Position numbers and translations under genes: made by a program | Shown: positions 14,591 to 52,872 of the stretch, piece by piece | How positions within the stretch are numbered: the first letter of the stretch is position 1 | How the letters are laid out: each line of letters begins with the position of its first letter | Notes under the pieces: model-generated | Seen by the model: only the letters and a program-made list of their open reading frames with translations | The model's database searches: none | What the model was told of the DNA's origin: nothing | Assembly: GCF_963921235.1 (NCBI RefSeq) | Contig: NC_086108.1 | Location: 91,700,001 to 91,764,000 of the forward strand | From: Mobula hypostoma | Lineage: Eukaryota | Direction of reading: 5' to 3' | Length of the DNA: 64,000 nucleotides

Positions 14591-14598
14591 CTCTTGAG

Positions 14599-22413: not shown

Positions 22414-23510
22414 TAAAAGTTTAACTATCTATAAATTTATGAATTTTTCAATTTGTAAAATTTATTCGTGAATGAATCTTAAACAAAAATACCAATGTTA
22501 CAATAGAATCACTGATGCATGCAGAAAAGAATGAAGCCATCTTGCCCATTGGTGTTAGACAAATCCAAAACTAATTTCACAGATCTCCACATTATCCAGT
22601 CTTAAATTTGATTTGCTTCAAAACTTTATCTGATTTGGACCTTAAAAAAAGTGAAATACCTACCATAATGATTTCATTATGGGAGGACAGTCTGTGCTGT
22701 GACAACCAAATAAAATTTCTCAGACTGTTTTCCCAGTTTTTATCAACCCGTCAGCAATTTATTTCTTTCCCTTTGGTCCCGTATACTTACCTAAGCTCTT
22801 TCTGGAAACATATCAAGCGTTTCGCCTCAGTCTCTTCTCTATGGTTAAGAGTTCCACATCCTAATCACTTTATGCAAAGAAAAATCATCGTATTTCCTTT
22901 TTGGATTAAGTTTCTCCATTTGTCCCAACAAAATTTACATTTTAAAATCTCCAGAAAAATTCCCCAGACCGTCCTTTGCTAGAGCGGAATTGGTCACAGT
23001 CTATCAAGTATCAGCATCTCAAGTTGCTCCTAATAACAAAATATGTTATTCTTGCCAGCCACTTGGGAGTCTACATGATATGCTATGTAAGGCTTTAAAA
23101 TCTGTTCCTTCCCATAACTGGATATCCAAAATGAAGAAAATACTCTTAACTGTGCTGTATAAATTTGACATAACTTTATTACTCTTTCATTGTTTGGGTG
23201 CAATGTGATGCTTGCTGTAAATAACTTTCAGCAAACTTGAAGATCCATTCAGTCTTGACTCTCACTCCTGTGTGTTGTGGTCAGGCAGGATTGCAGATGC
23301 CAAGGTGTAACTTCCCAATCCGCCACTGGACTCTGCTTTATGCCAGCTGAAGCAAGGAATGCATTAGAATGGGAATGACTAACTTGTTTGGAAAAAGTGA
23401 AGGTAAAATTTTTTATGTAATCTCAATATTCAAAAGTATTTTAAAAGACAAACTTATTTTCAAATTTATAAACATTTACTGTACATAAAACAGTTCTAGT
23501 TTTATTAACA

Positions 23511-23719
23511 GATACAAGAGGTACTGCAGATGCTGGAAATCTAGAGCAATACACACAATGTTGGAGGAGCTCAGACAGCATCTATGAATGAGAATTAGCA
23601 GTTGATGTTTTGGGTTGTTACCCTTAAAGAAGGGTCTCGTCATAAAACGTCGACTGTTTGTTCCCATCTGTAGAAGCTGCCTGACCTGTTGAGCTTCTCC
23701 AGCACATTGAGTATATTGC
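23511..23719. mobile_element. Fold-back Penelope pLTR mini-element with 14-bp TSD
   Basis: Arms are inverted about CCCTT-AAAG-AAGGG. TCTAGTTTTATTAA (23495-23508) and TCCAGTTTTATTAA (23720-23733). Confidence 0.82.
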
Positions 23720-24515
23720 TCCAGTTTTATTAAAATCTTTCTAATCATTGGTCTCATTTAATAGCAGTTTAAAGGTCTTGAATAGTAGTAAGCTGTCTGA
23801 AGGCTGTAAGGGTAGTCTGATGATGGGGCCACAGGACTTGCCACCTGAGACTTGAATAGATTGCTCTACTTTGTGGAATGGCATTCGTAACAAGGTCTCA
23901 GGGTCCATTGGACCGATTGGGCTGTATAACATTACTGCAGTTCAAGGATTAGTATGGGTAGCATTCATGATCTAATTCAATGTAAACACCTAGAACTGTC
24001 TTTTAATTGCCTCATCAGTTGGACTCTTAATTTATAATATATTTTTATTACCAGACTCTAAATATTCCATTTGTATTGAAATAAATTAGACATCTAAATA
24101 TGACGTTGATGCAATAAGAGCTTTACCTTCTGAATCTTCAATGTGGCTATTGTGGTAACACGTATAAATAAGTGCTTTAGTTTGTGTGCTGCTGTCAAAT
24201 GATGAGCAAGGCATCAAGCACACATGTGCCTCATGCCCTGAAGATTCCCCTTGAAGCACTAGTCTCCAGCCTCTCTGCCAATGCTTACAATGAATCAGTG
24301 ATTGAATTACTGCTAGCTGCACAGAAGTAGTAATCATGGATCTTAGCAAATAACAAACATAAACAGAATTACTTATACCTTCTTTAAAGGGTGAGAGAGC
24401 ACAGCAATCCTTGTGTCACCAAGGACACCTGGATACTCTCAGCTTTCTCTTTACACCTTGCCTTGACCAAATCCCTGTGTGCATTCATGAGCACTCTAGG
24501 GTCAGTCTGCCAATG

Positions 24516-24822
24516 AACATAGAACATGGAACAGTACAGGACAGGAACAGACCCTTCAGCCCACAGTGTCTGTGCTGTCATGATGCCAAACTAATTCCAT
24601 TTGCCTGCACAGGGTCTGTGCCTTTCCATTCCCTGCTTGTTTGAATATATTTTAAACATTGCTACTCTATCTGCTTCAAGTACTTCTCCAGACAGGATGT
24701 TCCAGGCACCTACCACTTAAAAAAAATGCCTCATAAGTCTTCTTCAAACTTCCCTCCTCACGCCTCTAAGTTATACTCTCTAGTATTTGACATTTTCACC
24801 ATGGAATAAAGACTCTGACTCT
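24516..24822 (-). mobile_element. Old CR1 3' end
   Basis: AACATAGAACATGGAACAGTACAG tail and CR1 3' UTR. Confidence 0.7.
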
Positions 24823-26155
24823 TATGGCAGAGGGGAAGAAACTGTTCCTGAAGCACAGAGTGTGGGTTTTCAGGCTCCTGTAGCTTCTCCCCAGTGGTAG
24901 TAATGAGAAGAGGGCATGGCCCTTAATAATGGATGCCACCTCCCTGAGGCACTACCTTTTGAACATGACCTCGATGGTGGGTTGGGTTGTGCTCTCAACA
25001 AAGATGGCTAAGTTCATAACCCTTTTGATCCCGTGCATTGGAGACTCCATTCCAGTGGAGATGCAACCAGTCCACCATAGATAGGTAGAAATTATCAAGA
25101 GTCTTTGGTGAGATAGAAATCTCCTCAAATCCCTAATGAAGTATAGTCACTGGCATGCCTTCTTCATGAATGTATCAATGTGTTAGACCCAGGATAGATC
25201 TTCTGAGATGTTGACACTCAGAAACTTGAAGCTGCTCACACTCTTTCCATTTCTGACTCCTCAAAGGCATCTTGTATGTGTTCTCCCATCTTCCCCTTCC
25301 TGAGCTCCACAATCTTGGTAATTGTAAATTGTCATGTGATTAGGCTAGTGTTAAATAGGTGGGTTGTTGGATGGTGTTGCTCATAGGGCCAGAAAAACCT
25401 GTGATGCAACGTATCTCTAAATAAAATTTTAAAATGAATTAGTCTTGCTGAAGTTCAGTGCAAGATTGTTGTAGCGACACCACTCAAACAGCCAATCTAT
25501 CTGACTCCTGTTTGCCTCTTCACCTCCATCAGAGATTCTGCCAACAGCAAATTTACAAATGGTGTTTGAGCTGTGCTTTGCCAGACAGTCATATGTTTAG
25601 AGAAAATACAGCAGTCTCCTAAGCATACATCCTTGACGTGTGCCTCTGTTGACTGTCAGCGAAGTGGAGATATTATTGTCAATCCATGCTGACTGTAGTT
25701 TCCCAATGAGGAAGTCGAGGATCCAGTTGTAGATGGAGGTGCAGAGGCCCAGGTTTTGAAGTTTGTTCATTCATACCGAGGGGATGATGATGTTAATGCG
25801 GAGTTGTAATCAACAAACAGCAGTCTGACTTATGTATGCCGTTGTCAAGGTGCTCCAATTCGAGTGGAGAGTCATCTGTTGTAGTTGTAGGCAAATTACA
25901 GTGGGTCCAGGCCCGTGTTCAGACAGGAATTCATTCTAGCCATGATCAGCTTCTCAAAACACTTCATCACAGGAGACGTGAGCGCTACTGTGCGAAGGTC
26001 ATTGATACAGTCCACCCTGCTCTTCTTGGGCACCAGTATGATTGATGCCCTTTTGAAGCAGATGGGAGACTCTGACTGCAGCAGTGAGAGGCTGAAGATG
26101 TCCTTGATCACTCCAGCCAGTTAGTTTGCCCAGCTTTTCAGTACCCTGCCAGTTA
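24823..26155 (-). mobile_element. Rex1/Babar LINE fragment(s), with a SINE 3' piece at about 25317-25425 (+)
   Basis: ORF 25896-26111 (PICFKRASIILVPKK...VALTSPVMKCFEKL); homologous to 10420-10866 and 12218-13100. Confidence 0.85.
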
Positions 26156-26164
26156 CCTCATCGA

Positions 26165-26575
26165 GGAGTAAGCCATTTGACCCTTTGAGCCTATTCTGCC
26201 ATTCATCAAGATCATGCCTGATTTTCTACATCAATCCCCTTTTCCTGTACTTTTGTCATATCCCTTGATTACCTTCATGTCCAGAATTTATTAGTTCTCT
26301 GCTTTGAATTAAATCAATAAGTAAGCCTTCTCAGTTCTCTAGGGGAGATAATTTCAAAGACTCATCATCCTTTTTGTGATGAAATTTCTCATTTCTCTCG
26401 TAAGCAGTCTATCTCTCATTCAGAACTTGTGGCCCCTGTTTCAAGACATCATTATCAGGGAAAACAGCCTTCCTGCATAGACCCTGTTGAGCTCTTTAGA
26501 ATTTTTTTAATGCTTTAGTGAGAGATAATTCTTCTGAAGTCTAGACAATGCAGGCTTAGTCCTTACAAACTCTGC
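26165..26575 (-). mobile_element. Old CR1 3' end
   Basis: Diverged homology to 2451-2870. Confidence 0.6.
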
Positions 26576-26877
26576 TCTCTGTTGCATGTTCAAATTTCAT
26601 TCATAAAACTACATGTACAGCCTTCTGCTTTAACTTGGTGGATCTAAACCTACTGAAACTACAGCTGCTGCGGCAGAGTCACATGGTGAAGATGCTGCTA
26701 AAATGGATAATTTTATAGAAAGGAGGTTCATTATTGAAACTAGGCCTCTCGTTCTCCTCTACCACCATTCCTGCCAAGGTGTCCCATCAACTGCTGGGGT
26801 GGCATACATCTTCTCCCTCTGTGGCTGCCTCCTGCCCTCTTGGGAATTGTGAATTTAAGAGCTTGTACCATGGTATA

Positions 26878-27414
26878 TAGAAACCATAGAAACCATAGAA
26901 ACTACAGCACAGAAACAGGCCTTTTGGCCCTTCTTGGCTGTGCTGAACCATTTTCTGCCTAGTCCCACTGACCTGCACACAGACCATATCCCTCCATACA
27001 CCTCCCATCCATGTATCTGTCCAATTTATTCTTAAATGTTAAAAAAGAACCCGCATTTGCCACCTCATCTGGCAGCTCATTCCACACTCCCACCACTCTC
27101 TGTGTGAAGAAGCCCCCCCAATGTTCCCTTTAAACTTTTCCCCCCTCACCCTTAACCCATGTCCTCTGGTTTTTTTCTCCCCTTGCCTCAGTGGAAAAAG
27201 CCTGCTTGCATTCACTCTGTCTATACCCATCATAATTTTATATACCTCTATCAAATCTCCCCTCATTCTTCTACGCTCCAGGGAATAAAGTCCTAACCTA
27301 TTCAACCTCTCTCTGTAACTGAGTTTCTCAAGTCCTGGCAACATCCTTGTAAACCTTCTTTGCACTCTTTCAACTTTATTTATATCCTTCCTGTAATTTG
27401 GTGACCAAAACTGA
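26878..27414 (-). mobile_element. Young CR1 3' end, near-identical to 10867-11400
   Basis: QFWSPNYRKDINKVERVQRRFTRMLPGLEKLSYRERL is identical in both copies; ATAGAAACC repeat tail. Confidence 0.95.
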
Positions 27415-27874
27415 CCAAAGTAAACTGCCCATTTCTGCACACAAGATCCAGGGTTACCAGTTCTCAAGCAGATGGCATTTTGGACATTGTATTCGAATAT
27501 ATTTTTCATGGAGCTTTACAATTTAGTAACAGTCCTACTCTCATTCTGCAATATTAACAAGTGTTTCCAATGACTGCAGAATTTTTTGGTCATAGCTTTC
27601 CCACAGAGAAAGGCTCTTTACAAGCATAAAAGCAAACAGAGTAAAGAAATACATTTAAAAAGGACAGTCTCCAAGAGAGATGTTGGGGGTTCACTCTTCA
27701 ATTTCATGTTTTTATGGTTTGGATAAATGGTATTTTTAAATTACAAGAAAGGTGGAGGATGAACAATTATTGATAGTTTTATGCAAAATGAGGCTCAATA
27801 AAACAATTATTGACATTCAATCAAACAAAAATATCTATTAAATAATAATAATAAATATTATTAAATGGTAATGA

Positions 27875-27957
27875 TCTGAAGGGACCTGGACCGAAATATT
27901 GACTGGTTAAGTCTCTCCATAGATGCTGACTGACCTTCTGTGTTCCTCCAGCATTTG
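27875..27957 (+). mobile_element. Short Penelope pLTR fragment
   Basis: GAAGGGACCTGGACCGAAATATTGACT...CCATAGATGCTGACTGACC...TTCCTCCAGCATTT. Confidence 0.65.
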
Positions 27958-29249
27958 GGAGGTCTTTTAGTGTACATTAGTGGCATGTATTTTATGAACT
28001 TCATTTGGGTTTATAGTGAAGGTTGAAAATGAACAGTTAGACTGCCTGAGACTAAACTGAAATTCACCTTTGGTGACTTGTGCAAAGTGCACTGAAGTTA
28101 AAGGAACTGGACGCAGGGAAGGGAGTACATTGAGAAGTTAATATTGTTGTGCCTGCTCAAGATTAGCCACAAAAGAGGAGTTTCTACTGCCTCATTCTGA
28201 CAGGCTTCTAGAAATACAATTTATGAATGTCTAGCCCACATTTTTTCCAGTTGGGAAAAGAAAAATCAGTGAGTAGGAACAGCTGTGGGAGGTCAAAAAG
28301 ATCTGTTTGATTTCAACTCAACCCTCAGCTTTCTTGTATTGGAAAAATACCATTTATTTTGCAGACATTGACACAAATTTAGCCATGTTTCTTTCAACTC
28401 TTCTGAACTGGGACCACCTTTTTGTTAATATCAAGAGCCATTGACTGGAGCCAAATAGCTGGACTGTATTCCTCAGAGTTGCACCCATAAGAAGAAAGTT
28501 TTGCTGTTTGTGCCACCTCTGACTTGTTTTTCTAATGTTTCATTCATTCTGCTCATCTTTAATTACCTTCTACATAAAACTGTCAGCATTCTAATCCACC
28601 TCCTGGATTTTGGAGATTCAATTTTTTTATCTTGAGAGTACATTGTACAAACAAGTATTGAAAAAAATTGTTGTTATGGATTCTACAAAACATTGGGTTG
28701 ATATTGCAACATACAGAGTAACAAAGGATCTAAAACTACATTTATAAATTACAAGATCCTGCACCACCTCCCCACAATTACACAAAGTACTTTTTTAATT
28801 AAAATTACAGGTTGAAAAAACAAGCTTTGTGAAACATACGGGAGAAAAAATATTTAAAGTGTGAGTGCTTTTATTGTTTGATTAATCCTATCAGGAAAGG
28901 CAACATTGAATGGAAAGAGTATTTCAGAGGGATTACTGCTAATCTGTATGTTGCAATGCGAATTGAATACTGCGGTAAATGATTACCACTTGTCAACAAA
29001 GAACAACTAAATCAGTTACTTGTGGGCGGATTCCACTAATCCAGTCTCTCCATTTCAAGCCTGGTCTCTTCCTCATAATTTTTTCTGTTATGTTTGTTTC
29101 GATGCTAAATGCTCAACATGCTATGTTACATGTATTATTTAAAGCTATTTTTTGCTTTCAAAATACTTTAAATTGTCAGGTGTACTCTGTAATACCAATC
29201 CTTCACAGCACAGTCACTGTGTGGTTGGTTTCTCTTGCAGGCAAGTGTC

Positions 29250-29720
29250 TTAACAAGAACACCTTCCATTTACACAGTACCCTTAACATAGAAATGTAAT
29301 TCTGAGACATTTCATTTAGATACAAACAGGCAAAAACAAATACTGGATGAAGACACTCAAAAGTTTGGGGAAAATAATATTTGACCACCTTTAAGAAGGA
29401 GAATAATATGGAGAGACAGAAAAGTTCAAGGCAAGCGTCTGTGGTCTGGGGGTCTAAACTGATACATGCATGTTTGCCATGACTGGAGTGAAGGATAGAC
29501 CTTATATGAAAGGTCAACCAGAGAAGAATTCAGGAAATGAATGGAAGGGAATTATAGAAAACGAGGGGGCACGAAATTTAAGGAGTTAAAACCTGTGCTG
29601 AAAGATCATGAGCCAATGTAAGTAAGAAAGCATAGGGTATTTGTAAGCATTATAATGTAGGTCTGGATAAGAATTGAAGTTTTGAATAGGCTGTAGCTAA
29701 TGAATGATACAGCAAGAAGT
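29250..29720 (-). mobile_element. Ancient L2-type LINE 3' end
   Basis: Resembles, from memory of the family, the L2 tail (CATTTACACAGTACCCTTAAC...) and adjacent 3' region; heavily diverged. Confidence 0.45.
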
Positions 29721-29734
29721 TACTTCAAAATAAT

Positions 29735-30100
29735 GGCTTTCCTATCATTAGAACATCCCAATATTCTTGACAATTAATTATTTCTGAAATATTATTCATG
29801 TTATATTGACCAGTGTGGAAGCAAAGAGACCACAAATAGTGATAAGTTGTTTTTTTCGCTCTCTCTGTGCATGGATAATTGAGAGCTAAGTGCTAGATCC
29901 CTGGGCATCATTGGCTATTCCTGCAATCTTTTGCACATGGCTCTAATGAGATCATTCATACCTATCAAACAAAAAATCAGATGAGGTCAGTGCAATAACA
30001 TACTGAAAAAATAGTAAAAATGCACGGTGTTGCTCAAAACCAGAATGAGGTGTAAGCCTAGATAATGTGTTTGTATTTGCATTTGAACCAGAAGCAGGGA
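29735..30100 (-). mobile_element. Ancient Deu-domain (SacSINE1/AmnSINE-like) SINE remnant
   Basis: Patches such as GTGTAAGCCTAGATAATGTG and GAACATCCCAA are collinear with the reverse complement of the family as I recall it. Confidence 0.4.
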
Positions 30101-31237
30101 AAAAGGACAAGGATGAATTCTATTTCTGAAAAAAAGTGCATAGATTGAAGTTCCACCTCAACTTAAAAAGTTTTACCTCAAATTCTTCTACCTTCAACTG
30201 AAGAATAAAATTGATCATTGATCAAAATATGTTTTTTTTCCAAAGTTTGGTTTATGATTTGAATGATGCTCCTTTATAGTGGATTTCCAGAATACAGGAT
30301 CTCTTTAAACAGGGTAAAAGAACTGACCTTTGATCTAAACTATTATCGCTGGTTAATATTTTCACTGCACTTGTGACTGCACGGCAGAGAAATGGATTGT
30401 ACTAAAGAATAGGAAAAAGTTAAAATTACTCATGAACAAATAAGTACGCAAACAGTAAATTAGATTACTTTTATACTTAATCATCTGTGAAAACTGCTGA
30501 GAATCAAATTTGTAACTGCATTTTGTAATATTATAGATTTGTTTATTTAATTAATGGTGAGTTGGAAAATAACATGATATTTTTCCAAAAAGATTCAGTA
30601 CTTAACACAAACATTGAGTGGATTTGGGTGTTAGATTATTCTGGCTATTATTTAGAAAGAAAGTCTCAGCTATCAGGAAATAATTATATAGAAAGTATGA
30701 ACAAAGCTTTCTTAATTACACAGAAACACTCTGTTGCCCTAATTATAGCAGTAATTTTATTTGCAAGCTTTTTAGTGGCAGGTTTTAAAAGTATGAAAAA
30801 AAAACATCATTTCAGCTTGTCTGGTAAACAGACAGAATGATCACCATGTCTGAAAAATCTGTTTAGGAAAGTAAATTATTTTGTAATGCAGTACTTTCAA
30901 AATGTTTACCATATGCAGAACTAACAGTAATATAATGTCAATTGAAGGCAAAATCTCGGTGAAGACTACTGCTATGGACATCCAAATTCAGGAAGAAGAA
31001 TTCAAACATCGGTGAGCCCCAGCATCAATAATGAAGTCTTTATCAAAGAGGTGTGTAGTGCACCTCTGGTTACCTTTCACTATAATTTTCCATCCCACTT
31101 TCACTCTGATCTGACAATGACTCTCATTGAAACCCTTTCTCACAGTGAGTTATACCTACACACAATAACAGTAAGCCAATAAAATTTCAATAGTCTGAGC
31201 CTGGGAGAAGGCTCAGATAAGGTTTTAGTTGGACTCA

Positions 31238-31254
31238 TTCCACCAGGGGGCAAC
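31238..31254 (+). promoter_or_regulatory. Candidate CTCF site
   Basis: TTCCACCAGGGGGCAAC contains the canonical core CCACCAGGGGGC in non-repeat sequence. Confidence 0.4.
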
Positions 31255-32228
31255 ACTACCGAGACTCCAGTTCAAAATCAAGATCAACCAGGAAATTGGG
31301 AATGAAATGAGTATCAACTATTGAGTGAGGCAGCTTCAAAATGGTAGTCCTAGGTAGAAGTTTGCAATGTTACCTTCAAAGATGGCTGCCAAAAATACAT
31401 CAAAAAGCAAGACCTTATTTGCCTGATTTCATTGACCTTTTAAAGAAGTTAACAGACTATGCAGAAAATGGTAATAAAAAATCATTAAAAATGATTTTCA
31501 AAAGATATTCAATAATGTTCCCAAAAGGGACTAATGTGCAAAGCTGGAAAATTCAAAGTCAGGCAGCAGCAATGCAGTGTGGATTGCAGAGTCACAAATT
31601 CATACAACGCTGAAACATGCCCTTTGATCCATCGAGTTTATATTGCTCATTGTACCTATCAACACTAATCCTATTTATTCGCATTCGGCCTGCAGCCTTC
31701 TATGCTTTATCAATTTAAATACTTGTCTGTTTGGCTTCAAGTCAGAAAGTAGAGGGCGGAAGCAAAAGGTATCTATTTGTAGTGGAAGGAAATGGGTAGC
31801 GTCACTGCAGGCCCTTTGCTGTTCCCAATTTACATTGATTTAGATTTTGCAATCAGGAACATGGCTTTTGAAATTTAAGACTAATAACATATTTGGGGGT
31901 AAGGTTGGCAGGGAGAATTGTCAGTACTGACGATGGTAATAGGCAATAACAGATGAACGTTAATAAATAAATGAGAAAATAATCAGTGGGTTATAGTCAA
32001 TGTAAATAAATATGAGTTGGCTCATTTTGAAGAATTGAGATGTCTCTTTTCTCTTGGAAGATAGAGGATTTGGATGGGTAGAGGAAAAAAGGAATATTAG
32101 AATACAAATATACCAGTCATTGAAAATTGCATCACAGATTAGCAAGGTCAATAAGAAGGCAAAAAGTTTTTTGAGTAACATGCATATTTGTTGCTTAATA
32201 AAGCAGTATAAACAAGCATCAAATAATG

Positions 32229-34401: not shown

Positions 34402-34441
34402 AATGGCTTTATCAGTCACAAACCCTAGTATAATAACCCAG

Positions 34442-34630
34442 CAACACATACAAAATACTGGAGGAACTCGGCAGGCCAGGCACCATCTATGGATAAGAGT
34501 AAACAGTCAACTTTTTGGGCCGAGACCCTTCATCAGGACTTCTTTCCATAGATACTGCTTGGCCTGCTGAGTTCCTCCAACGTTTTGTGTGTGTTGCCCA
34601 GATTGCCAGCATCTGCAGATAGTCTCCTGT
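34442..34630. mobile_element. Fold-back Penelope pLTR mini-element with 13-bp degenerate TSD
   Basis: 34442-34495 is inverted at about 34543-34597. TATAATAACCCAG (34429-34441) and TATAATATCTCAG (34632-34644). Dead hammerhead in the loop. Confidence 0.82.
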
Positions 34631-35850
34631 CTATAATATCTCAGTGTCCCTCTCTAATGCACAGGATGCCATGCTTGGCAAACATTCAGGAGTAACTGCA
34701 GCGTGATTTCATGCCCATTAATATGCGACCTAACGGCAGGACCAGCAGACGGGCTGGGCCCATGTTGTTGACTGACGTGACTCCATGAATAAGCCACTGA
34801 AGGTCACAGGAAGTGTATTCACTTAATGGTGTGAATATTAAAAATATGTTGTGAGGTGGCATTTCTGAGGCTCCATGCATGTTCAACTATACATGGTTAA
34901 AATAAAGGATTAGTTGGATGAAGTCAGGAGTAAAAGCGGAAAATACAGGTCAAACAGCATCTGAGGAGAAACTTTTTACACTGTAGAGTGTTAAGTTGTA
35001 ATTTTGGTGTCCATACTCCAGTTAATTCTGGGTGGAAAATCACCAAAGGCCGGCTGATATGGTGGCCATCTTAACTCCTGCCACAAATCTGCAAGTGTAC
35101 ATTGCTGACATCTTAGATCCAATAATATACAGCAGGCAAAGCAAATGTTTACTATCGCACTAAACATTGCAAATTTAGAGTGAACAGTCAATTCAATGCA
35201 ATGCGAAGCTATGTGCTAAAGTGAAGCTTGTAACCTCTAAACACAACAGATCATGACTGCAATATATTGCATTGGCTCTCAACCAGACATTTTGATTCAT
35301 TGTCCAATATAGTCATACAATCAATCAATTCACAAAATGCTGAAATGGCTGCACAGCGCATTAGGACTTGCAGTATTTTGCACTTCTTGGTACAAGTTCT
35401 TTAACTAATGATATGGTACAGAAATATTATATAGTATTCAGTCACACAGAGAGTATGTATGTATGTGTGTGTGTATATATATATGTACTCTCTGTATAAC
35501 TGCTGTGAAATCAACCTCACAGACTAATCTAGCCAGCAGTCTTAATTGTGATATTTTCATTTTCCGTCACTTTTCAGAGCAAAGTCTAAAATACTAAATT
35601 TATCCACTCATTCTTAGTTTTATTTCATTCTTAGTGAATTCTCAAAAGCAGAAGGGCAAAAACTACAGTTTTATTTCAGTAGTTAAAAATAGATGTAGTG
35701 ATATAACTTTTTCAAACAAAGGGACACATAGTGGTTGTTGGGAGACACTTCTAACAAATACAGCAGAACACTTACTTTTCCCTCCTGATTTATCCTGCAT
35801 GAACATCTGGGAGTACCTCTCCCAGCAAATACTACCAGGTTTGATCGTAA

Positions 35851-35981
35851 ACACAAGAGATTCTGCAGATGTTTGAAATCCAAAATAGCACACTCAAAAT
35901 GTTGGAGCTCTGCAGGCCAGGTAGTATCTTTGGAAAAGAATAAAGAAAGGATGTTTCAGGCCGAGACTCTTAATCAGGACT
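35851..35981 (-). mobile_element. Penelope pLTR terminal fragment ending at the hammerhead 5' edge
   Basis: ACACAAGAGATTCTGCAGATG...GTTTCAGGCCGAGACTCTTAATCAGGACT. Confidence 0.75.
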
Positions 35982-36214
35982 CATTGACAGGCATACTGAT
36001 CAGGTGGGAAGAATGTAGGTGGATGTGATGTTGATTGGAGAGCTAGTACACAGGGTCTGTTGTTGGGTACAGAGAATATCAGAGATTATGTGAGCATAGG
36101 GATATAAATAGCAGCAGGATGAAGGCATGCAGTTGCTGAAGTCCAAAATAGAATTCAGAATGGTCACAATTCCTCAGATTTTAGTGCTAATTCCACATAT
36201 TATAATTATACTTC

Positions 36215-37190: not shown

Positions 37191-37199
37191 TGGTTCATG

Positions 37200-40625: not shown

Positions 40626-40697
40626 GGGTGGAGTTTTGGCTGGCAATGTTATAGTCTGGGGAGCAGGTCCATATGAATGATGTTTCGCAGAAGAGCA

Positions 40698-42590: not shown

Positions 42591-42829
42591 AACAATGAAT
42601 CGGAACTAGACCTTTGCAACAAATTAAATACATCATCATGAGTGCAGAGTTGTCCATTCTCATATCCTCATGATTTATATCAAGGTTTCTGTCGCCTTGG
42701 AGATGGTTCTGTTTTGGAACATTATGAGTCTCAAAGGTAGTAACAGCAGAGATTCATCAGATATCAAAGTCTGAATATGTGTCTGAACTGGAGCTCTTGC
42801 TGTTAACCAAATATAAATATACTTTGCTT

Positions 42830-43220
42830 AAAATATACTCAATGAGCTGGCCTCCACAGTCATTGGTGGTAATAAATTCCACAGATTCACCACTCTCTGG
42901 CTAAAAAATCTCTTCTCATCTTTTTTCTTTATTCTGGCATCTTTCCCTGACCTTCTCAGTCCTGAAAAAGGGTCTCAGCCCAAAATGTCAGCTGTTTATT
43001 CATTTCCTTAGATGCTTCCTGACCTGTTGAGTTCCTCTGGCATTTTGAGTGTGTTCCTTCTTATCTCTGTTCTAAATGGACGTTCCACTATTCTGAGACT
43101 GTGCCCTTTGGCCCACATCCACTCGATCTAGGCCTTTCAATATTTGATAGATTTTAATGAGATTCCCACCCCCACATTCTTCTAAACTCCAGTGAATACA
43201 GGCCCAGAGTTTTTCATACG
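42830..43220 (-). mobile_element. CR1 3' fragment with inserted Penelope pLTR piece (about 42930-43056, +)
   Basis: CR1 homology to 40840-41100. Insert AGTCCTGAAAAAGGGTCTCAGCCCAAAATGTC...GCATTTTGAGTGTGTT. Confidence 0.75.
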
Positions 43221-45223
43221 TGATAACCTGAAAATCTCAGTAGCAGAAACAAGTGACTCAGATAGATCGCCTAAAAGAAATCAAATGCTCCACAGTCTTT
43301 AATTGTAGACCCGTATAGCTGTTGGATCTCTTATACAATTAAAGAATCTACAAGAAATGGCAACACAAAATTCCCTGATGCAGCCAGTACAATTTTTGAT
43401 GTTTCTTTTTATAGGTTATATTGGGTGAATGATGTAAACTGGACACTGCAGAGGTATCAGTTTCTGAGTTAACTCCAGTTGAGTTAGTTTCATGTTGTTG
43501 ATTGGCACAGCGAGCATATTAAGAATTACTTTCATACATAGAAATGATAAGATATCCAGTGATCCAGATTGCTCACTGAGCAGAGAACATGTATTTTCAA
43601 AACTCGAGGTTATGCAACATTTTTTGCAAACCTTTACACAGCTGCAATTTAAAGTAGATTAGAATTTCAAAATGCATTTTAATGCACCCTACAAGTGTTG
43701 ATGAGCTATATATAACACAGTTCTCAACATCAGCACCGCAAGGAAACTTTATGAACAACAGCACACATCCTTCAAAAATTATTTTTTGCCTCAAGAACTT
43801 TATTAACATATGATTATTGAATTATGGAGTCAAGTAAAAATTTGTGGCTCTATTTCATTAAGTGATGGATTGGTAGAATTTTAATGGTTTGCCTTGGTAA
43901 ATAAAACAATTTTTAAAAATATAGATATAGGTCATACAATAAATTAAAATATTGGAGCAGCATAGAATGTTTTCAAAAATTAAGCTCTGTTCTGGAGTTG
44001 CAATGAGTGATGAGGTGATGGTATGCAGAGCTGAGTGCCAGCATTTACCCTAAAGGATATTTAGCACCCGGCAATAGTGATGTCACCAATCAGGCTGAGT
44101 AGCCAATCACTTTGAAGAACTCTCACAGAAAGCATGTCAGAAAGTGACATTTTTAAAACAAACCTTCAAAACATATTACAGAGAGCAAAATAAAAATTGG
44201 AAGATGCATGTGAGGTTAAGGTAGCATGAACAAACATTTGAAGATCTTCAGTTATTTTAAAGACGTGTTGTAATTTTCAGATAACAATCTGAGGTGAATT
44301 CGACTCCATGCGTTAAATTAGATGTTCAGGGATGGAAAGGGGGTTTCGCAATAATTGTGGCTGAGTACATCACTAATACTCAGCTACACCTCATTTAGCA
44401 AGGTGTAGCATTTTTAAGCATATTTACAGCAAAAATAGTCTGTAAAATACTAAATTGTTATCAATTCAGTGATTTCAAAAAGACTTCCATCTGTAAGAGC
44501 TCCAGTAACATACCCCCTGGAGAAGAAGTGCTACTGACAGCAGCTTTTGGAATTGTGCTTTTCAGTATCACAGGCTCCAGATGTTATTGTGAGATTCACA
44601 GTGTAATTACAGCAAACGTTAACAGTTTTGTCATCATTACAGCCACAAAATCTGGGCCAAGGATGCTGTATTCAAAGATCTGTGCGCAAGTCCCAATAAG
44701 ATAAGAATACTCTACCGAATAAATATGGCTTAACAATATCTGCTTTTATAGCATGATCTAAATTCTGGATTGCCTTCATCTTGCCTGACAATTGATAGTA
44801 TAATTGAAAAGATGACAAGCCCAAAAGTTCAATATAAAGAAACGAAGTGTTAGTGCATTTTAAAGGGTTAATCTTTGTGTTTGTCGAATGCCTCACTACC
44901 ATTGTTGCCTTGAGCATAACAGCACTTAGATTACTACTATGGGAATACCGTACAATCAGGAGAATGTAATACTATGTGCAAACGATTGTGGGAAAATGGT
45001 GAGTGAAGACAGGAATGGGATTCGTGAAGATGGGTTCTGATTCGGTGGTATGAGATGGTGCTATGTATTGGTACACTTAATACAGCATTTCTTATCAGTG
45101 GAAAAGGTACAAAAGTACAGTGGTTGGGGTGCTTGTGGGGGCTTACAAGGCCTCACCAATCAACCTCCACCCGGACTATAGCCCTCCACATATGTACTTA
45201 CCCAAATTTCTCTTAAGTATTGA

Positions 45224-45448
45224 TTCCTAGGACACATCATATGGAAAGATGAACTAGAAAAACTCATACTCTCTGGAAAGATTGAGAGGAGTAAACCTAG
45301 AGGAAGACCTCGGCTTATGTACATCAAAAGCATAGCCAGGTGGCTCCACATCGAAGATATGGAAGTCATCCAAAAAACGAAGGATAGATCTATATGGAAA
45401 ACCATGGTCACCAACGTCCGCATCGGATATCGTACCTAGACAGACAGA
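45224..45448 (+). mobile_element. RTE-clade LINE 3' end
   Basis: Open frame FLGHIIWKDELEKLILSGKIERSKPRGRPRLMYIKSI...DRSIWKTMV...* followed by an (AGAC)n tail. Confidence 0.85.
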
Positions 45449-45783
45449 TATTGAAATCAAACCCACATTCACCACTTGCACTGGCAGCACGTTCCATAGT
45501 CTGACCACCCTCTCACTGAAGAGCCCTCATGTTCCCCTTAAACATTTCACCTTTCACTTTTCATCCATGACCTCTAGTTGTAGTCTCACCAACCTCAGTG
45601 GAAAAAGCCTGCTTACATTTATCCTATCTATACCCCTCATAATTTTGTATCCCTCTATTAAATCTCTTCTCAACCTTCTGCATTCTAAGGAATAAAGTCC
45701 TAACTTATTCAATCATTCTTTGTAACTTAGGTCTTCAAGTTCTGATATCATCCTTATAAATTTTCTCTGCTTTCCTCTAATCT

Positions 45784-46477
45784 AAAATTTCGGGAGAAGA
45801 TGGCGACAGGATGATAGCGCGCACGGTCTCTCCGGTGATGAATATCTGTTATCTGTCAAGTAGGAGACCGTGCACAATCCTGATTTGATGGAGACAGACA
45901 TGAGCGCATAGTGGAACATCTGGAAAACTTCTGAAATGTCTGCTTTGCTACCACTGCTACTGTGTGGCAACCGGAAGCTCTGGAGCTGAAGGCCTCGAAA
46001 TCCTCGGCTTTGCGTGTTTCAGCGGCCGGGGAGAGGTTGAAGGCGCTTGGCAGAGTATGACGCTCGGGAGGCTGTATCGGAGAGACTGCTTGGAAACTCG
46101 GAATTTTTGGACGGATGGACTCAGTGTCGGCTGTGGTTGGCTGCTTCCAAGGTATCGGCAAGTTGACGGTGCCTGGAGGTTTATGGCAGGGAGTTTCTCC
46201 CTTTTGCTGCCGCTTTTGGGGACTCGGGAGTTGATCGACTCGGGGACTTTGAGACTATTTTTTTTATTGTGCCTATGGACTGTTCTTCATCAAATTATGG
46301 TATTGCTTTGCACTGCTGTAACTATATGGTCTAATTATGTGGTTTTGTCAGTGTTAGTCTTTGGTCTGTCTTGTTTTCTGTGATATCAGACCGGAGAAAT
46401 ATTGTATCATTTCTTAATGCATGTATGCATTTCTAAATGACAATAAAAGAGGACTGAGTGTTCTCATAATCTAATCT
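45784..46477 (+). mobile_element. Non-autonomous CpG-rich retroposon, copy 2
   Basis: 5' GGGAGAAGATGGCG; 3' AATAAAAGAGGACTGAGTGTTCTCATAATCTAATCT. TAATCT occurs on both sides (45778-45783, 46472-46477). Confidence 0.85.
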
Positions 46478-47236
46478 TATTTACATTTTACCTGTGTCAG
46501 TGAGCATATCTGGACACAACACCCCAAATTAGGCCTCACCAATGTCTTATACAATTTCAACATAACATCCCATCTCCTGTGCTTTGTACTTTGGTTTGTA
46601 AAGGCCAGTGGACCAAAAACTTTGTTTACGACCTTACCTACCCATGAAAACACCTTCAATTAATTATGGACATCTATTCACAGACACCTGTGTTCTGCAA
46701 CACTCGTCAGTGTCGACTCTCACTGTGTATGGCCGACCCTGGCTGGTCCTCCCAAAATGCAGCACTTCACACAAATTCCACCTGATCTTCTTCAGTCCAG
46801 CTGGTCCAGATCCTGCTGCAAGCTATGGTAGGCTTCCTCACTATCCATTACACTCTCAGTCTTGGTGTCATCCACAGATTTGTTGATCCAGTTTACTTTA
46901 TCGTTCAGATCATCGATATATTGTAGACAACAAACAACAACAGACACGCACTAATCCCTGCAGCACACCATAAGTCACAGGCCTCCTGTCTGAGAGGCAA
47001 CCATCTATAGCCACTCCCTGGCTTCTTCTGCAAAGCCAATATCTACTACCTCATCGTGAATGTCAAGTGACTGAACCCTCTTGACTATGCAGGACCTTGT
47101 CAAAGGTCTTGTTAAAGTCCATGTAGACAACATCCACTGCATTGCCTTCATCAACTTTCCTGGTAACTTCCTCGAAAAATTCTATAAGATTGGTTAGACA
47201 TGACTTACCATGATAAAAGCCATGTTGACTATCCCT

Positions 47237-47371
47237 AACAAGAGAAAATCTGCAGATGCTAGAAATCTGAGCAACGTACACACACAAAAGATTTCAGCCC
47301 GAAACGTCAGCTGTTACTTTTTTCCACAGAAGCTGCTTGGCCTGCTGAGTTCCTCCAGCATTTTGTGTGCA
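47237..47371. mobile_element. 135-bp inverted-pLTR Penelope mini-insertion with perfect 12-bp TSD
   Basis: TTGACTATCCCT at 47225-47236 and 47372-47383. Removing the insert restores the CR1 sequence. Confidence 0.9.
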
Positions 47372-49223
47372 TTGACTATCCCTTATCAGTCTCTGTCTAT
47401 CCAAATATTTATATATCCAGTCCCTTGGAATATCTTCCAATATCTTTTCCACTACTGATAATTATCGGATCACTGGCCTATAATTTCCTGGTTTATTCTT
47501 AACTTTTCTTAAACAACATTATCTATCCTCCAATACTCTGGCAGCTTATCCATGGGCAAGGATGTTTTAAATATATCTGATAGGGCCCCTGCATTATTTG
47601 CACTACCCTCCCATAGAATCCGAGGAAACACCTTGTCAGGCCCTAGGGACTTACGCACCTTAATTTGCCACAAGACAGCAGGTAGCTCCTCCTCTAATCT
47701 GTACAAGGCCCATGACCTTGCTGTTACATTCTCTCACATCAATAGACTCGATGTCCATCTCCTGAGTAAATGCATTTAAGACATACCCCACCTCTTTCGG
47801 CTCCATGCATAAATTATCACTGATCCTCCAGAGGACCAATTTTGTCCCTTGCTATCCTTTTGCTATTAATATATCTGTAGAATCCCTTAGGATTCTCCTT
47901 CACATTGACTGCTAGAGTAATCTTATGTCTTCTTTTAGCTCTCCTGATTTCCTACTCAAATGTTCTCCTGCATTTCTTATATTCCTCAAGTACCTCATTT
48001 GTTCCTTCCTGCCCACTATGCACTTACATTTTCTTAACCAGGGCCTCAATATCCCTAAAAAAAAAACAAGATTCTATAACCCTGTTATCCACACCTTTTA
48101 TTCTGACAAGAACATACAAACTCTGTACTCTCAAATTTTCACTTTTGAAGGTCACCCACTTACCAAGTACACCTTTGCTAGAAAACAGCCAGTCCCAACC
48201 CTCACTTTCCAGATACTTTCTGATACCATAAAATTAGGCCTTCCTCCAATTTTGAGGCTCAACCTGAGGACCAGATCTTGAAACTAATGGCATTATGATC
48301 ACTAGATGCAAAGTGTTCCCCTACCCAATCTTCTGTCACGTGCCCTGACTCATTCCCTAATAGCAGATCAAGTATCACAGACTCTCTATATACAAATTAA
48401 GGAAACTTTCCTGAACACACTTGACAAATTCTTGCCCATCCAGCCAATTTACAGTATGGGAGTTGCAGTCAATATGTGGAAAGTTTTAATTACCTACTAT
48501 CACAACCTTGTGTTTCTTGCAACAGAGTGTGATCTCTCTACAAATTTGTTCCTCTAAATCCTGCGGAGTGTTGGGTGGTCTATATAATAATATAATCCCA
48601 TTAACGTAGTTATATCTTTCTAATTCCTCAGTTCTACCCATAAAACCTCACTAGACAGGTTCTCCGGTCTGTCCTGACTGTGTACTACCATGACATTTTC
48701 CCTGACTAGTAATGCTGCTCTTTAATCCCTCACACTCTATCATGTCTAAAACAATGGAATCCCAGAATATTGAGCTGCCTGTCCTGCAACCAAGTCTCAC
48801 TAATAGCTACAATGCTATAATTCTACATGCTGATCCATTCAATAACTCATCCTCCTTTCCTACAATACTTCTTATACTGAACTATATACAGCTCAGACCA
48901 TTAATCCCACCACACTCGACCTTTTGATTCCTGGCATCTTTCTCCACAACCACTCCTCCATCTGTTCTGCCACTCTGGTTCCCAAACCCTAGCAACTGTA
49001 GTTTAACCCCCTGCTCACCACAGCGCAGCACCAGCAAACCTTCCTGCTCAGATGTTAGCCCCCTCTCCAGTTCAGGTGGAAAACATCCCTGCTGTACAGG
49101 CCCCATCTTCCCTGGAACAGAGTCCAATGATCTAAAAATCATAGCCCTCCCTCCTGCACCAGCTCCTTAGCCATCTGTTAAACTGTATGATCATCCTATT
49201 TCTGGCCACTCTAGCACATGGTA

Positions 49224-49850
49224 TTAGATTATGAGGACACGCAGTCCTCTTTTATTGTCATTTAGTAGAGCATGCATTAAGGAATGATACAATATTCCTC
49301 CCATGTGATATCACAGAAACACAGGACAGACCAAGACTGAAAAACTAACAAAAACCACATAATTATAACATATAGTTACAACAGTGCAACAATATCATAA
49401 CTTGATGAAGAACAGGCCATGGCACAGTAAAAAAGTTCAAAATCGCTGGAAAGTCCCACATCTCACGCAGACAGGAGAAGGAAGAAAACTCTCCCTGCCG
49501 TGCCCGACCACAGTCCGACTCTGAGTCGTCCGAAAACCTCGAGCTCTGATCAGCTCTCTGACACCGAGTACCGAGCACAATCTCTGCCAAATGGTTCGAC
49601 CTCAGCCTCGGTCACCAGCAGCAGGCAAAGCCGGGGATTTTGGGGCCTTCCCTCTGGAGATTCTCGATCGCACAGTAGCAGCGGTAGCGAACTGGACATT
49701 TCAGAAATTTCTCCAGATGTTCCTCTGCTTCTCATGTCTGTCTCCATCAAATCAGAATTGTGCACGGCATCCTACTTACAAATATGATATCATTTCACCA
49801 GAGAGCTGCGCGCGCTGCGTCACGCCGCCATCTTCTCCTCCCGCCTTTGT
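49224..49850 (-). mobile_element. Non-autonomous CpG-rich retroposon, copy 3
   Basis: CGCCATCTT at 49826-49834; 3' hairpin GAGGAC-TGCGT-GTCCTC and ATAATCTAA tail. ATGGTA on both flanks (49218-49223, 49851-49856). Confidence 0.85.
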
Positions 49851-50699
49851 ATGGTAGAAAACCTGAGATCACAACCCTAGAGGTACTGTTCTTTAATTTA
49901 GCACCTAATTCCCTGAAGTCACTTTGCAGGACCTCGTCACCCCTCCTACCCATGTCATTGGTACCAATGTGGACCATGACCTCTGGTTGGTCACCCTCCC
50001 ACTTAAGAATGCTGTGGACTCAATCTGAGATGTCCATGACCCTGGCACCCTGGAGGCAACAAAACACCTGGGGATCTTGTTCTTGTCGACAGGACTTCCC
50101 TTCAGTCCCCTAACCAATGAATCCCCTATCACTGCTGCTCACCTCTTCTCCCCTCTTCCCTTCTGAGTCACAGAGCCCTGACTGCTGTTGCTGTCCATTG
50201 CTAGGTCATTCCTCCACCACAGTATCCAAAGCGGTTATACCTGTTATTGACCAAACAGCCACTGGGATACTCTGCACTGGCTGCTTATCCTCGTTCCCCT
50301 TCCTGACAGTTACCTAGTTACCTGCATCCTGCGCCTGGGGTGAAACTACCTTTACGTATGCTCTGTCTATCAACCCCTCAGGCTCCTGATTGTTTTGGAG
50401 TTCATCCCGTTCCAGATTCAAAGATAAAACTAATTAGTATCAGCATTAAAACTAAAATGTAAATAGAATGTAAAGGCATGAACAAAAAATCTGAAGTAAA
50501 AACAGAGACCGCTGCAAGTGCTCAACTGATCATCACATGAGGAATATTTCCCCTGAAATACTAAATCTTTATTTCTTCCTAACCAGCTGAGCGTTTACTA
50601 ACATTTTTATGATTTTATCTTCTGCTGGGCATCAATGGAAGAATGTAAGAGTCCAAAGATAGAAGGGGGAGAAAGGAAGAGCTCTTTCTTGATTGAAGG

Positions 50700-50779
50700 C
50701 AGGAGTTCCCAACCTTTTTTATGCCATGGTCCAATACCGTTATGAAACGGATCTGTGGACCCCAGGTTGGAAACCCCTG
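50700..50779. mobile_element. hAT-like MITE of about 80 bp (copy 2)
   Basis: TIRs CAGGAGTTCCCAACCT / AGGTTGGAAACCCCTG. Confidence 0.75.
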
Positions 50780-50991
50780 CACTGACATTGCTTCTCCCCC
50801 TTTTGATTCTGCCTGACCTCCGGACATTTTGTTGCTTTCTTCTCTGAGATGAAGGAGAATAATAATACCTTCTCTTTTCAGTGTAAGGTTCAGCTCCGAT
50901 GCTGGGTTTATACAATATGAATCCTCTTCAAATCAAATCTGGAGTGTTCACTCCACCACTTAATTTGGTCAAAACTATTGGCGTTTCACAA

Positions 50992-51173
50992 CACACACAA
51001 AATGCTGGTGGAACACAGCAGGCCCGGCAGCATCTATAGGTAAGAGGTACAGTCGATGTTTCGGGCCGAGGCCCTTCCTATACCTCTTCCTATAGAATCT
51101 GCCTGGCCTGCTGCGTTCCACCAGCATTTTGTGGGTGTTGCTTGAATTTCCAGCATCTGCAGATTTCCTCGTG
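50992..51173. mobile_element. Fold-back Penelope pLTR mini-element with TSD of up to 14 bp
   Basis: TTGGCGTTTCACAA (50978-50991) and TTGGCATTTCACAA (51174-51187); inverted arms of about 60 bp; truncated hammerhead in the loop. Confidence 0.88.
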
Positions 51174-51308
51174 TTGGCATTTCACAATACAGTTCACAGC
51201 AAACTGTCAGAACACAAATCTACTAAACTGAGCCAGAACACTATTTTCAATTAGTTGCCCAATAAAAATCAACAAAGAATTTAACTAACATTTGCTAAAG
51301 TTAATTCC

Positions 51309-51476
51309 CGCAAAATGCTGAAGGAACTCAGCGGGTCAGGCAGCGTCGATGCAGAGGAATAAAGTGCCAGTGTCTGCCCTTTATTTCTCTCTGTAGCTGC
51401 TGTCTGACCTGCTGAGTTCCTTCAGCATTTTGTGTGCAATGCTCTAGATTTCTAGCAACTGCAGAATCTCCCATCT
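51309..51476. mobile_element. Fold-back Penelope pLTR mini-element (older)
   Basis: GCAAAATGCTGAAGGAACTCAGC...GCTGAGTTCCTTCAGCATTTTGT. Flanks CTAAAGTTAATTCC / CTAGAATTAATTTC (11 of 14 match). Confidence 0.8.
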
Positions 51477-52054
51477 CTAGAATTAATTTCAATATTTTTC
51501 ATGTAAACTACAATACCTAGCATTTTGTTTGTTTGTTGTGTTTATTCTTAGTGGGTGATATTTAGAGTTTATATTCTGATCCAGTCTGTGGCTGCTATTT
51601 GGACCAGAATGCTATTAAAGTTTGATGAATCATTTAATGAAACCAACAGCATAAGAGATCTATTATTCTTTTAAGGGTCAGCCCATGTTTGTGCTTAGCA
51701 ATATCAACACCATGGCAGTATCAACAGTGTACAGCAAATGTTGAATGGAGACTATGTAGAGGAAATGCTTCATTAAACAATGAATCATTCAATGCTAGTC
51801 ATTCAGATGCTGCAAAAGCACACACAGACCGTAACAACAGCCTGGTGCAATAATGAAAAGGCGCAACTTTTCTTATGCAGGTCAATAAAATGGTATAGAA
51901 AAACATTGGCTCAATTGTTTTAACTTAACTCAAATGTTTAATTTGAAAATGTTCCAACTTACAGACTGCACTTTATGATGATGGCTTTTATTAATTTTAT
52001 TGAAAAAAATTTCTAAAAGGTGAAATTCCTTTTTGAAATTCTATAAAATATTGC

Positions 52055-52868: not shown

Positions 52869-52872
52869 AGGT

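Follow-up and report, generated by a model that had tools for sequence, protein, structure and literature searches.

The closest described relatives of the structures analysed here are the EN+ Penelope-like elements (PLEs), whose canonical unit is described as a pLTR with an adjacent inverted 5'-truncated copy, a one-sided tail of 30-40 bp and a TSD (PMC8557442; PMC3846280). For the Poseidon element PAc of Anolis carolinensis, TPRT in vitro cleaves and extends both target strands from identical RT start sites, the enzyme is predicted to form a dimer, and the joining of the inverted copies is left unresolved (Frangieh et al. 2024, PMC11167929). In Schistosoma, pairs of minimal hammerheads on opposite strands, 100-700 bp apart, have been attributed to truncated PLEs (Cervera and de la Pena 2014, PMC4209133).

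We analysed a stretch of 64,000 nucleotides of Mobula hypostoma DNA (the window), in which six named elements each consist of two 3' pLTR ends standing head-to-head inside a TSD of 12-14 bp, and found a seventh head-to-head element at 1316-1819, outside the list of the original prediction (Table 1). These head-to-head elements are probably independent, dead-on-arrival insertions of an EN+, Neptune-type Penelope-like retrotransposon, the main and the inverted copy both being 5'-truncated to pLTR ends. The overall pattern is mostly known already: the inverted 5'-truncated pLTR, the one-sided tail of 30-40 nt and the TSD are in print, as are in vitro nicking and extension of both strands and two internal RT start sites. 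What is new here is that the arms of three of the seven elements are not nested, which excludes simple snap-back copying for them, and, as a suggestive observation only, that 8 of 14 inner ends lie in the hammerhead.

Table 1. Elements in the window. pLTR coordinates (negative numbers) come from an alignment of window copies, with the 3' end at -1, the hammerhead at -136..-100 and the predicted cut at -105/-104.
Feature	Span (strand)	TSD or flanking repeat (matches)	Tailed arm	Short-end arm	Junction or content
e1, fold-back	23495..23733	23495-23508 / 23720-23733 (13/14)	23509-23625 (-), tail end to about -128	23626-23719 (+), about -128 to -37	near-symmetric, at hammerhead core / stem II boundary
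e2, fold-back	34429..34644	34429-34441 / 34632-34644 (11/13)	34538-34631 (+), -96 to -4	34442-34540 (-), -38 to -136, entire hammerhead	3-nt overlap
e3, head-to-head insertion within CR1 LINE	47225..47383	exact 12 bp, 47225-47236 / 47372-47383 (12/12)	47237-47289 (-), -3 to -51	47287-47371 (+), -126 to about -40	arms almost abutting on template; short overlap; no hairpin
e4, fold-back	50978..51187	50978-50991 / 51174-51187 (13/14)	51078-51173 (+), about -102 to -5	50992-51077 (-), about -40 to -127	
e5, fold-back	51295..51490	degenerate, 51295-51306 / 51477-51488 (10/12)	51373-51476 (+), about -103 to -10	51309-51371 (-), -47 to about -103	symmetric; 1-2 nt or less from predicted hammerhead cut
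e6, fold-back	3538..3827	degenerate, 3538-3551 / 3814-3827 (11/14)	3552-3722 (-), -1 to about -169	second arm 3723-3811 (+), -153 to -65	
Seventh element	1302..1833	1302-1315 / 1820-1833 (13/14)	485 bp, 1316-1800 (-)	inverted, 13 nt, 1807-1819 (+)	
Simple 5'-truncated parent copy	14589..15730 (-)	10-bp exact flanking repeat			short end only
Simple 5'-truncated copy	17804..18263 (+)	10-bp exact flanking repeat			tailed end only
Simple 5'-truncated copy within CR1 LINE	42908..43065 (+)				short end only
Broken 5'-truncated parent	52870..54280 (-)				RT C-terminal part, CX4CxxC linker, GIY-YIG with two cysteines, pLTR with short end
Predicted intact minimal type I hammerhead motif	1410..1446 (-)				4-bp stem I, core, stem II, minimal stem III, by pattern match and stem pairing

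As in the EN+ unit described in the literature, an inverted 5'-truncated copy lies beside the main copy within one TSD, with head-to-head pLTR ends, a one-sided tail, a pLTR hammerhead and strong 5' truncation. In six of the seven elements here, however, both copies measure only 13-170 bp and carry no ORF, and the TSDs of 12-14 bp compare with 8-10 bp in the rotifer Penelope examples described. The likeness to PAc lies in the two internal RT start sites that define the tail, with both strands cut and extended; the predicted hammerhead cut follows the A of the core triplet by 25 nt here and by 26 nt in PAc, and the two end sites map to +91 and +124 relative to that A, where 111-118 is reported for PAc (PMC11167929). 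The Schistosoma pairs are likewise short-range inverted PLE hammerheads, and the passages describing them leave ends, TSDs and junctions unresolved. MITEs share the short, non-coding form, the terminal inverted repeats and the TSD, whereas the elements in the window have no constant internal sequence or length, a retroelement origin and a long TSD; instead of symmetric inverted repeats abutting the TSD, we found a 33-nt extension on one end throughout. In LINE-1 twin priming, both target strands prime cDNA, the cDNAs are joined through microhomology and a TSD surrounds an internally inverted insert, the two segments deriving from different regions of a single RNA, with a variable second site. 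The element e3 is most similar to such products, but in the window the two start sites have fixed positions close to the 3' end, and arms that overlap on the template, the usual case, form a hairpin.

The parent element and its predicted ribozyme

The assignment of the outer ends to a Penelope-like pLTR is supported by remnants of the parent ORF in which RT, GIY-YIG and a zinc finger in the linker are recognisable; the window contains no full-length copy. RT is followed by a C-terminal GIY-YIG endonuclease that is contiguous with the pLTR, as in EN+ Penelope-like elements. The remnants at 52870-54280 and 14597-15722 match P0001, P0003 and P0005 at 70-82% (the former being 76% identical to P0001 over 219 aa), RT motifs are recognisable in P0003, and the proteins closest to the parent element are from rays. 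The Pfam GIY-YIG model gave E 0.00046 for P0001, just below the curated cut-off, and E 0.2 for the window frame, and a Pfam search of the window PLE frames at E 0.01 missed all of them. The CX4CxxC linker, which P0001 shares with the 52870-54280 remnant, fits the CX2-5CxxC zinc-finger-like pattern of Neptune/Nematis and is absent from Penelope/Poseidon. The parent is therefore putatively Neptune-type, a label taken from the linker motif; membership of Penelope/Poseidon, our initial guess, was rejected because that group lacks the linker zinc finger.

The pLTR contains a predicted minimal type I hammerhead, also a feature of EN+ Penelope-like elements. The complete motif passes the pattern at only two places in the window and in none of the six named elements, and an Rfam search returned no hammerhead, only seven sub-threshold hairpin matches. 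Animal non-LTR retrozymes (bioRxiv 10.64898/2026.07.22.740005) are also non-coding, pLTR-derived and equipped with a type I hammerhead, but form head-to-tail tandems with a hammerhead in each unit, whereas most arms here are without a complete ribozyme; this identity was rejected, given the head-to-head units and the incomplete hammerheads of the named elements. Exact pLTR pattern scans of viral, metagenome and prokaryote genome contigs gave no match, nor did a protein scan of viral contigs. The protein scan of metagenome contigs yielded 29 loci at 40-63% identity, nine of them with some inverted repeat and none matching the window's pLTR.

Outer ends, target duplications and junctions

Automated calls for the 26 listed pLTR arms of the 64 kb placed 11 outer ends at -11..-1, 12 at -47..-29 and 3 elsewhere (-78, -65, -18), so that two clusters hold 23 of 26; by eye, the 'long' call at 14550-14720 among them is an apparent alignment overrun. 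All seven elements combine one tailed with one non-tailed end, an outcome with a chance of 0.006-0.008 under random end pairing. The expectation of one fixed end and another running about 35 nt further was accurate for six of the seven, which have the tailed end and the standard short site with a tail of about 33 nt (in the 1316 copy the long and short end positions are likewise 33 nt apart, within the published 30-40 nt). It proved too strict for the short end, which scatters by several nt among elements and in 3552-3813 (e6) lies at -65, the second arm stopping ~27 nt before the usual position. The outer ends of several elements have 2-3 nt in common with the start of the TSD, as priming would predict. 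In contigs of other runs, loose ends are heaped at the tailed end (1316) in at least 430, 372 and 50 contigs with unrelated flanks, and none was seen at the short end among the 24 rows listed of 1,920.

Duplications of 12-14 bp were scored in all six named elements, in line with the claim that each has its own TSD. Against 1,500 random flank pairs, the TSD score gave p = 0.0007 for e1, 0.019 for e2, 0.0007 for e3, <0.0007 for e4, 0.038 for e5 and 0.067 for e6, and with 210 mismatched element pairs as reference each of the six had p <= 0.019; all these values are optimistic because the element boundaries had been fixed by eye beforehand. No TSD was found for 4 of 15 candidates (61408-61570, 35849-35990, 17197-17283, 27877-27956). 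Paralogous empty sites were recovered for two of ten elements tested, the remaining eight being without a usable paralog; a paralogous CR1 at 12060-12204 carries a single copy of the e3 TSD motif, and four paralogous CR1 copies have an empty site for 42908..43065. For 1316-1819, the empty site is probably represented by an orthologous contig in run X9. The empty sites for e3 and 1316-1819 bear out the duplications. The 13-nt inverted arm of this element had p 0.0012 against random 19-mers, and a search for such a tiny arm in five simple copies (including 14589..15730 and 17804..18263) found none (p 0.66-0.99).

The centres differ from copy to copy as predicted, the seven elements of the window (n=7; 135-504 bp) having seven distinct junctions. 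In e2, e3 and e4 the short-end arm extends farther 5' than the tailed arm, and the tail is on the tailed arm only; each arm has sequence absent from its partner, and neither can therefore have been copied from the other. The proportion of inner ends inside the hammerhead corresponds to p 0.010, 0.054 or 0.15 at null shares of 0.25, 0.33 or 0.4, and clustering is not claimed, since the choice of null is arbitrary and the set was selected for short elements. For three inner ends the distance to the predicted cut is 2 nt or less. Loose ends at 1445/1446, the 5' edge of the hammerhead, are abundant in the listed contig rows of other runs and may mark only a point of subfamily divergence; the 24 rows listed, out of 1,920, include none at the predicted cut. 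Run X12 is only presumed to be RNA and is not taken as evidence of transcription. The named elements were expected to seed dsRNA hairpins; e1, e2, e4, e5 and e6 do fold in prediction (z -6.5 to -15) and might do so, whereas 47237-47371 (e3), with only about 9 nt common to its arms, does not fold back (z -0.8/-0.2), and the proposal fails for it. Arms differ by 19-33% within elements and are mutual best matches in one of five, an age that blurs the reading of the junctions. A same-subfamily origin of the two arms was indicated in three of five testable elements and not in the other two; in e4, subfamily-type bases are common to both arms.

Formation of the inverted insertions

The original prediction held that both target strands prime reverse transcription at two pLTR sites and that the cDNAs are then joined, which is the published Penelope in vitro model, extended. 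The anatomy of the elements and the in vitro results of Frangieh et al. 2024 fit the priming; the joining is the conjectural part, and we found no published demonstration that two cDNAs are joined in Penelope-like elements. The GIY-YIG domain would nick both target strands, as it does in vitro in a Poseidon relative, and nicks 12-14 nt apart, a spacing read from the sequence, would produce the TSD. Each target 3'-OH would prime RT inside the pLTR RNA, at the distal site for the tailed end and ~33 nt upstream for the short end, as demonstrated for the Poseidon relative; the long and short end classes found here agree with this. Both cDNAs would stop after a short distance, in many cases within the structured hammerhead, and could be joined bluntly or via 0-4 nt complementarity and then filled in. 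Extension of one strand only would leave an ordinary 5'-truncated copy with a TSD, and such copies also occur in the window. Since the arms of most pairs cover one and the same stretch of RNA, the templates were probably either two RNA molecules or a pair of pLTR copies carried by a single tandem transcript. We tentatively suggest, as a possibility, that Penelope-like integration is a two-template reaction of a dimer, one subunit always working from the tailed start and the other from the short one, with the hammerhead setting where the cDNAs stop and join by stalling, stem annealing or cleavage-site run-off. A point against the dual-priming account as a whole is that its biochemical model was obtained with a Poseidon element, and the parent here has a Neptune/Nematis linker.

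Self-priming, proposed by Arkhipova et al. 2013 (PMC3846280) and Craig et al. 2021 (PMC8557442), would have the 3' end of the cDNA fold back and copy itself into a hairpin, which the endonuclease resolves so that the tail stays on one side. Inverted-junction palindromes in rotifer Penelope elements are described in this way, with the tail attributed to EN resolution, and the symmetric junctions of e1 and e5 agree with it; such an origin is compatible with the symmetry of e1, e5 and possibly e6, and e6 combines an off-site short end with the weakest TSD. However, the arms of e2, e3 and e4 could not have templated each other, and later in vitro data assign the tail to two RT start sites (PMC11167929), and we regard self-priming as rather unlikely. 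It is also improbable that longer inverted-pLTR insertions, with ends and TSD from normal integration, lost their middles afterwards. Short junction overlaps in e2 and e3, the old arms and published descriptions of longer inverted-pLTR elements with TSDs would suit such deletions, but strong 5' truncation on insertion is described as usual for the Penelope class, the simple copies in the window are short too, and arm lengths form a continuous series from 13 to 485 bp.

Re-mobilisation of a few fold-back masters as units, in the manner of a MITE- or SINE-like family, appears very improbable from the window and the contig rows listed, in agreement with the claim that the elements are not one fixed MITE family: lengths and centres vary in the window, and the arms are drawn from several subfamilies. 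Literature passages describe pLTRs alone as able to mobilise sequence in trans, and both X1 and X5 contain a recurrent backward joint, 1446 to 1408, with a depth some 5-7x that of single-copy sequence, the rows leaving strand change and tandem repeat unlabelled; among the joints listed, however, depth is 181 at most against summed depths of >1 million, the X1 and X5 counts being lower bounds and contigs breaking at repeats. Two separate insertions side by side in opposite orientation are barely conceivable, even in so dense a family and with arms that are often not mutual best matches, since a single TSD encloses both arms without intervening host DNA, and for e3 the empty CR1 site indicates a single event. 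The arms sharing their TSDs largely refute this reading. Distinct junctions, TSDs and empty sites thus uphold the predicted independence of the insertions.

As structure, little is changed, the inverted copy, tail and TSD being known marks of Penelope-like insertions; the unusually clean mechanistic record announced beforehand is a clean example of a structure that, like its two start sites, had been published. Its value lies in the data, a tidy fossil record of Penelope-type insertion. Parts of the literature still call the formation of inverted repeats by Penelope-like elements open, and short cases bounded by TSDs, from a family of very high copy number, make dual priming and self-priming testable against each other from sequence alone. 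In practice, such copies resemble MITEs or miRNA hairpins, as the weak Rfam hairpin matches illustrate, and risk misannotation. If the two-template reading is true, ray genomes would hold tens of thousands of TSD-resolved intermediates, the ribozyme would act in vivo to limit how long inserts become, and the in vitro model from Poseidon would hold for the Neptune clade too.

Structure and setting of the fold-back elements

All six elements named in the original prediction are present, and each indeed consists of two outward-facing pLTR 3' ends fused at their truncated 5' ends; a seventh, longer fold-back that had not been named, 1316-1819, was also found. Each of the seven has its own central junction, as had been described for the named elements. 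The proposed asymmetry of the ends stands in that exactly one arm is tailed in all seven (chance under random end pairing 0.006-0.008), but the short end is not fixed, scattering over several bases and lying at -65 (pLTR 3' end = -1) in 3552-3813. The outer ends of 23 of the 26 pLTR arms listed in the window fall in two clusters. Strong hairpins on both strands, expected of all the named elements, were obtained for five of the six (z -6.5 to -15 against mononucleotide shuffles), but not for 47237-47371.

Coordinates of the fold-backs and related features (TSD, target site duplication)
Feature	Position	TSD match	Observation
Fold-back e1	23509-23719	13/14
Fold-back e2	34442-34631	11/13
Fold-back e3	47237-47371	12/12
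Fold-back e4	50992-51173	13/14
Fold-back e5	51309-51476	10/12
Fold-back e6	3552-3813	11/14
Seventh fold-back	1316-1819	13/14	485-bp tailed arm; 13-nt inverted short-end arm (p 0.0012)
Between its long and tiny arms	1801-1806		resembles reverse complement of next element-body bases; read as small local inversion at junction from 18981 copy and one contig loose-end row
Decayed head-to-head pair	61400-61575	none found	related pLTR type, right arm tailed; left out of the seven
Longest remnants of second repeat	52870-54280 (-); 14597-15722 (-)		translation: RT end, CX4CxxC linker, GIY-YIG with two internal cysteines
Internal deletion in 14597-15722 copy	14954-15250		~85 codons; linker that separates RT thumb from GIY-YIG is missing
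Decayed GIY-YIG-region fragments	63339-63497; 18594-19158		same element class
Hammerhead, intact copy	1410-1446		minimal type I motif match in parent's 3' end
Simple truncated copies	14589-15730; 17804-18263; 42908-43065		flanking repeats; inverted arm not detected
5' junction of 17804-18263 copy	17806-17830		9-nt stretch readable as local inversion of element body
Solo pLTR end	17590-17680 (-)		divergent type
Separate palindromic element	16939-17057		27-nt arms, 93% complementarity, unrelated to pLTR; weak miRNA-family matches below threshold
Inverted arms	27723-28357		40 nt, 555 nt apart; possibly DNA transposon remnant
pLTR fragment	27877-27956		inside 27723-28357

The window (GC content 41%) is packed with CR1-like LINE fragments (RVT_1 Pfam match) and with fragments of a second repeat. 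For one frame of this parent element, all nine proteins found were Mobula and Hypanus gene models (65-74% identity), which makes a ray the probable host. A related protein, P0001, has a Pfam GIY-YIG match (E 0.00046). By its linker motif, the parent would be a Neptune-type Penelope-like element, because according to Craig et al. (PMC8557442) a zinc finger in the linker is characteristic of Neptune and Nematis and is not found in Penelope/Poseidon. The linker region missing from the 14597-15722 copy is present both in the 52870 copy and in P0001. Of 29 metagenome loci that match Penelope-like RT distantly, 9 contain inverted repeats or long palindromes (L003-L027).

Insertion sites and copy diversity

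The claim that every named element is bounded by its own TSD was borne out. With boundaries picked by eye, TSD scores reached p < 0.05 against random flanks in five of the six named elements and p <= 0.019 against mismatched element pairs in all six. Fold-back 47237-47371 lies inside a CR1 copy, and the paralogous CR1 at 12060-12204 is continuous across the site with a single copy of the TSD motif; the simple insertion 42921-43052 likewise has an empty site with a single motif copy in four CR1 paralogs. Contigs of four public sequencing runs (X1, X5, X9, X12) were aligned to window 1150-1950. One X9 contig, with a depth of 8.48, extends over the left flank and stops at 1301, the last base before the left TSD copy of 1316-1819; the identical depth value is found on 1825-1878, right of the element. 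This contig probably represents the empty orthologous site, the joint itself not being among the rows listed.

The repeat family is very abundant (contigs matching 1150-1950: 80,854 in X1, 132,584 in X5, 50,041 in X9 and 5,860 in X12). Position 1316, the tailed end, gathers loose contig ends whose flanks are unrelated (430, 372 and 50 contigs among the rows listed); the 24 of 1,920 rows listed include none at the short end. The 15 of 163 joints listed are all skips (depth <= 181), and in a separate joint listing, of unlabelled kind, 9 of 12 listed rows are backward, at a depth of 28-67 versus 7-9 in the single-copy flank; the backward joint 1446 to 1408 was seen in both X1 and X5 among the rows listed. 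The proposal that the fold-backs are not one fixed family holds to the extent that these incomplete counts point to no large family sharing one junction among the rows listed, but small families may exist. Because the window also contains simple truncated copies without an inverted arm, ordinary insertion yields fold-backs as one of its outcomes.

Junctions, templates and integration mechanism

Eight of the 14 inner ends lie inside the hammerhead, three of them within 2 nt of the predicted cut. This is a hint that junctions favour the hammerhead, but the p of the clustering, 0.01-0.15, depends on an arbitrary null. No cut-site peak was present among the contig rows listed. The largest loose-end piles among these rows are at 1446 (779, 853 and 632 contigs), and at 1445 loose ends with unrelated AT-rich flanks occur in 338 contigs; both positions correspond to the hammerhead 5' edge and may mark a truncation hotspot or a subfamily divergence point.

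Frangieh et al. (PMC11167929) show that the Poseidon protein of Anolis, a predicted dimer, cuts and extends both target strands, and that the in vitro reaction did not need hammerhead cleavage. In their work, reverse transcription of the Anolis carolinensis element (PAc) begins at two internal positions, and the distance between these corresponds to the 30-40 bp tail. The ray element has a tail of 33 nt, and its hammerhead core-to-cut spacing (25 nt, versus 26 nt in PAc) is rated the same. If both target strands prime at the two sites, a head-to-head unit with one tail would arise inside a TSD. The mechanism originally put forward, both-strand priming, is plausible and near the published model, but its last step, the joining of two cDNAs, is inferred. 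Self-priming, an older proposal (PMC3846280), predicts nested arms, and fold-backs e1, e5, e6 and 1316-1819 fit either model. In e2, e3 and e4, however, one arm bears the tail while its partner reaches further 5', which means that neither can have been copied from the other; because these arms are not nested, their sequences logically exclude simple self-priming in three of the seven fold-backs.

In the five testable elements arm-to-arm identity is 67-81%. Only in e5 is each arm the best match of the other; elsewhere the partner ranks 2-12. Non-consensus bases common to both arms number 6, 0, 3, 6 and 2, the mean for other pairs being 2.0, and the e4 arms have subfamily-type bases in common, as judged by eye. 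Three of the five elements point to arms from one subfamily, but two are uninformative. Because the two arms of most fold-backs span the same RNA segment, the template probably consisted of a pair of RNAs or of two pLTR copies within one tandem transcript; a single template fits only e3.

Relation to described Penelope insertions

Comparable structures are described in earlier work, namely inverted 5'-truncated copies, often with the tail at one end only (Craig et al., PMC8557442), and units with inverted pLTRs, TSDs of 8-10 bp and a tail of 31 bp (Arkhipova et al., PMC3846280). Cervera and de la Pena (PMC4209133) mention hammerheads paired on opposite strands at distances of 100-700 bp. In a curation guide (PMC8969392), inverted pLTRs are treated as routine, as are 3' extensions. 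A preprint on non-LTR retrozymes (bioRxiv 10.64898/2026.07.22.740005) deals with tandem units. Our literature search, in which subscription titles were thinly covered, found no tabulation of pLTR-only fold-backs in cartilaginous fishes and no named twin-priming model for Penelope elements.

The fold-backs are real, were described correctly in the main, and supply a further example of an insertion structure already known. Their added value is modest: simple self-priming is logically excluded in three of seven cases, the two-end pattern is extended to a putative Neptune-type element, and the hint of a link between junctions and the hammerhead is testable.
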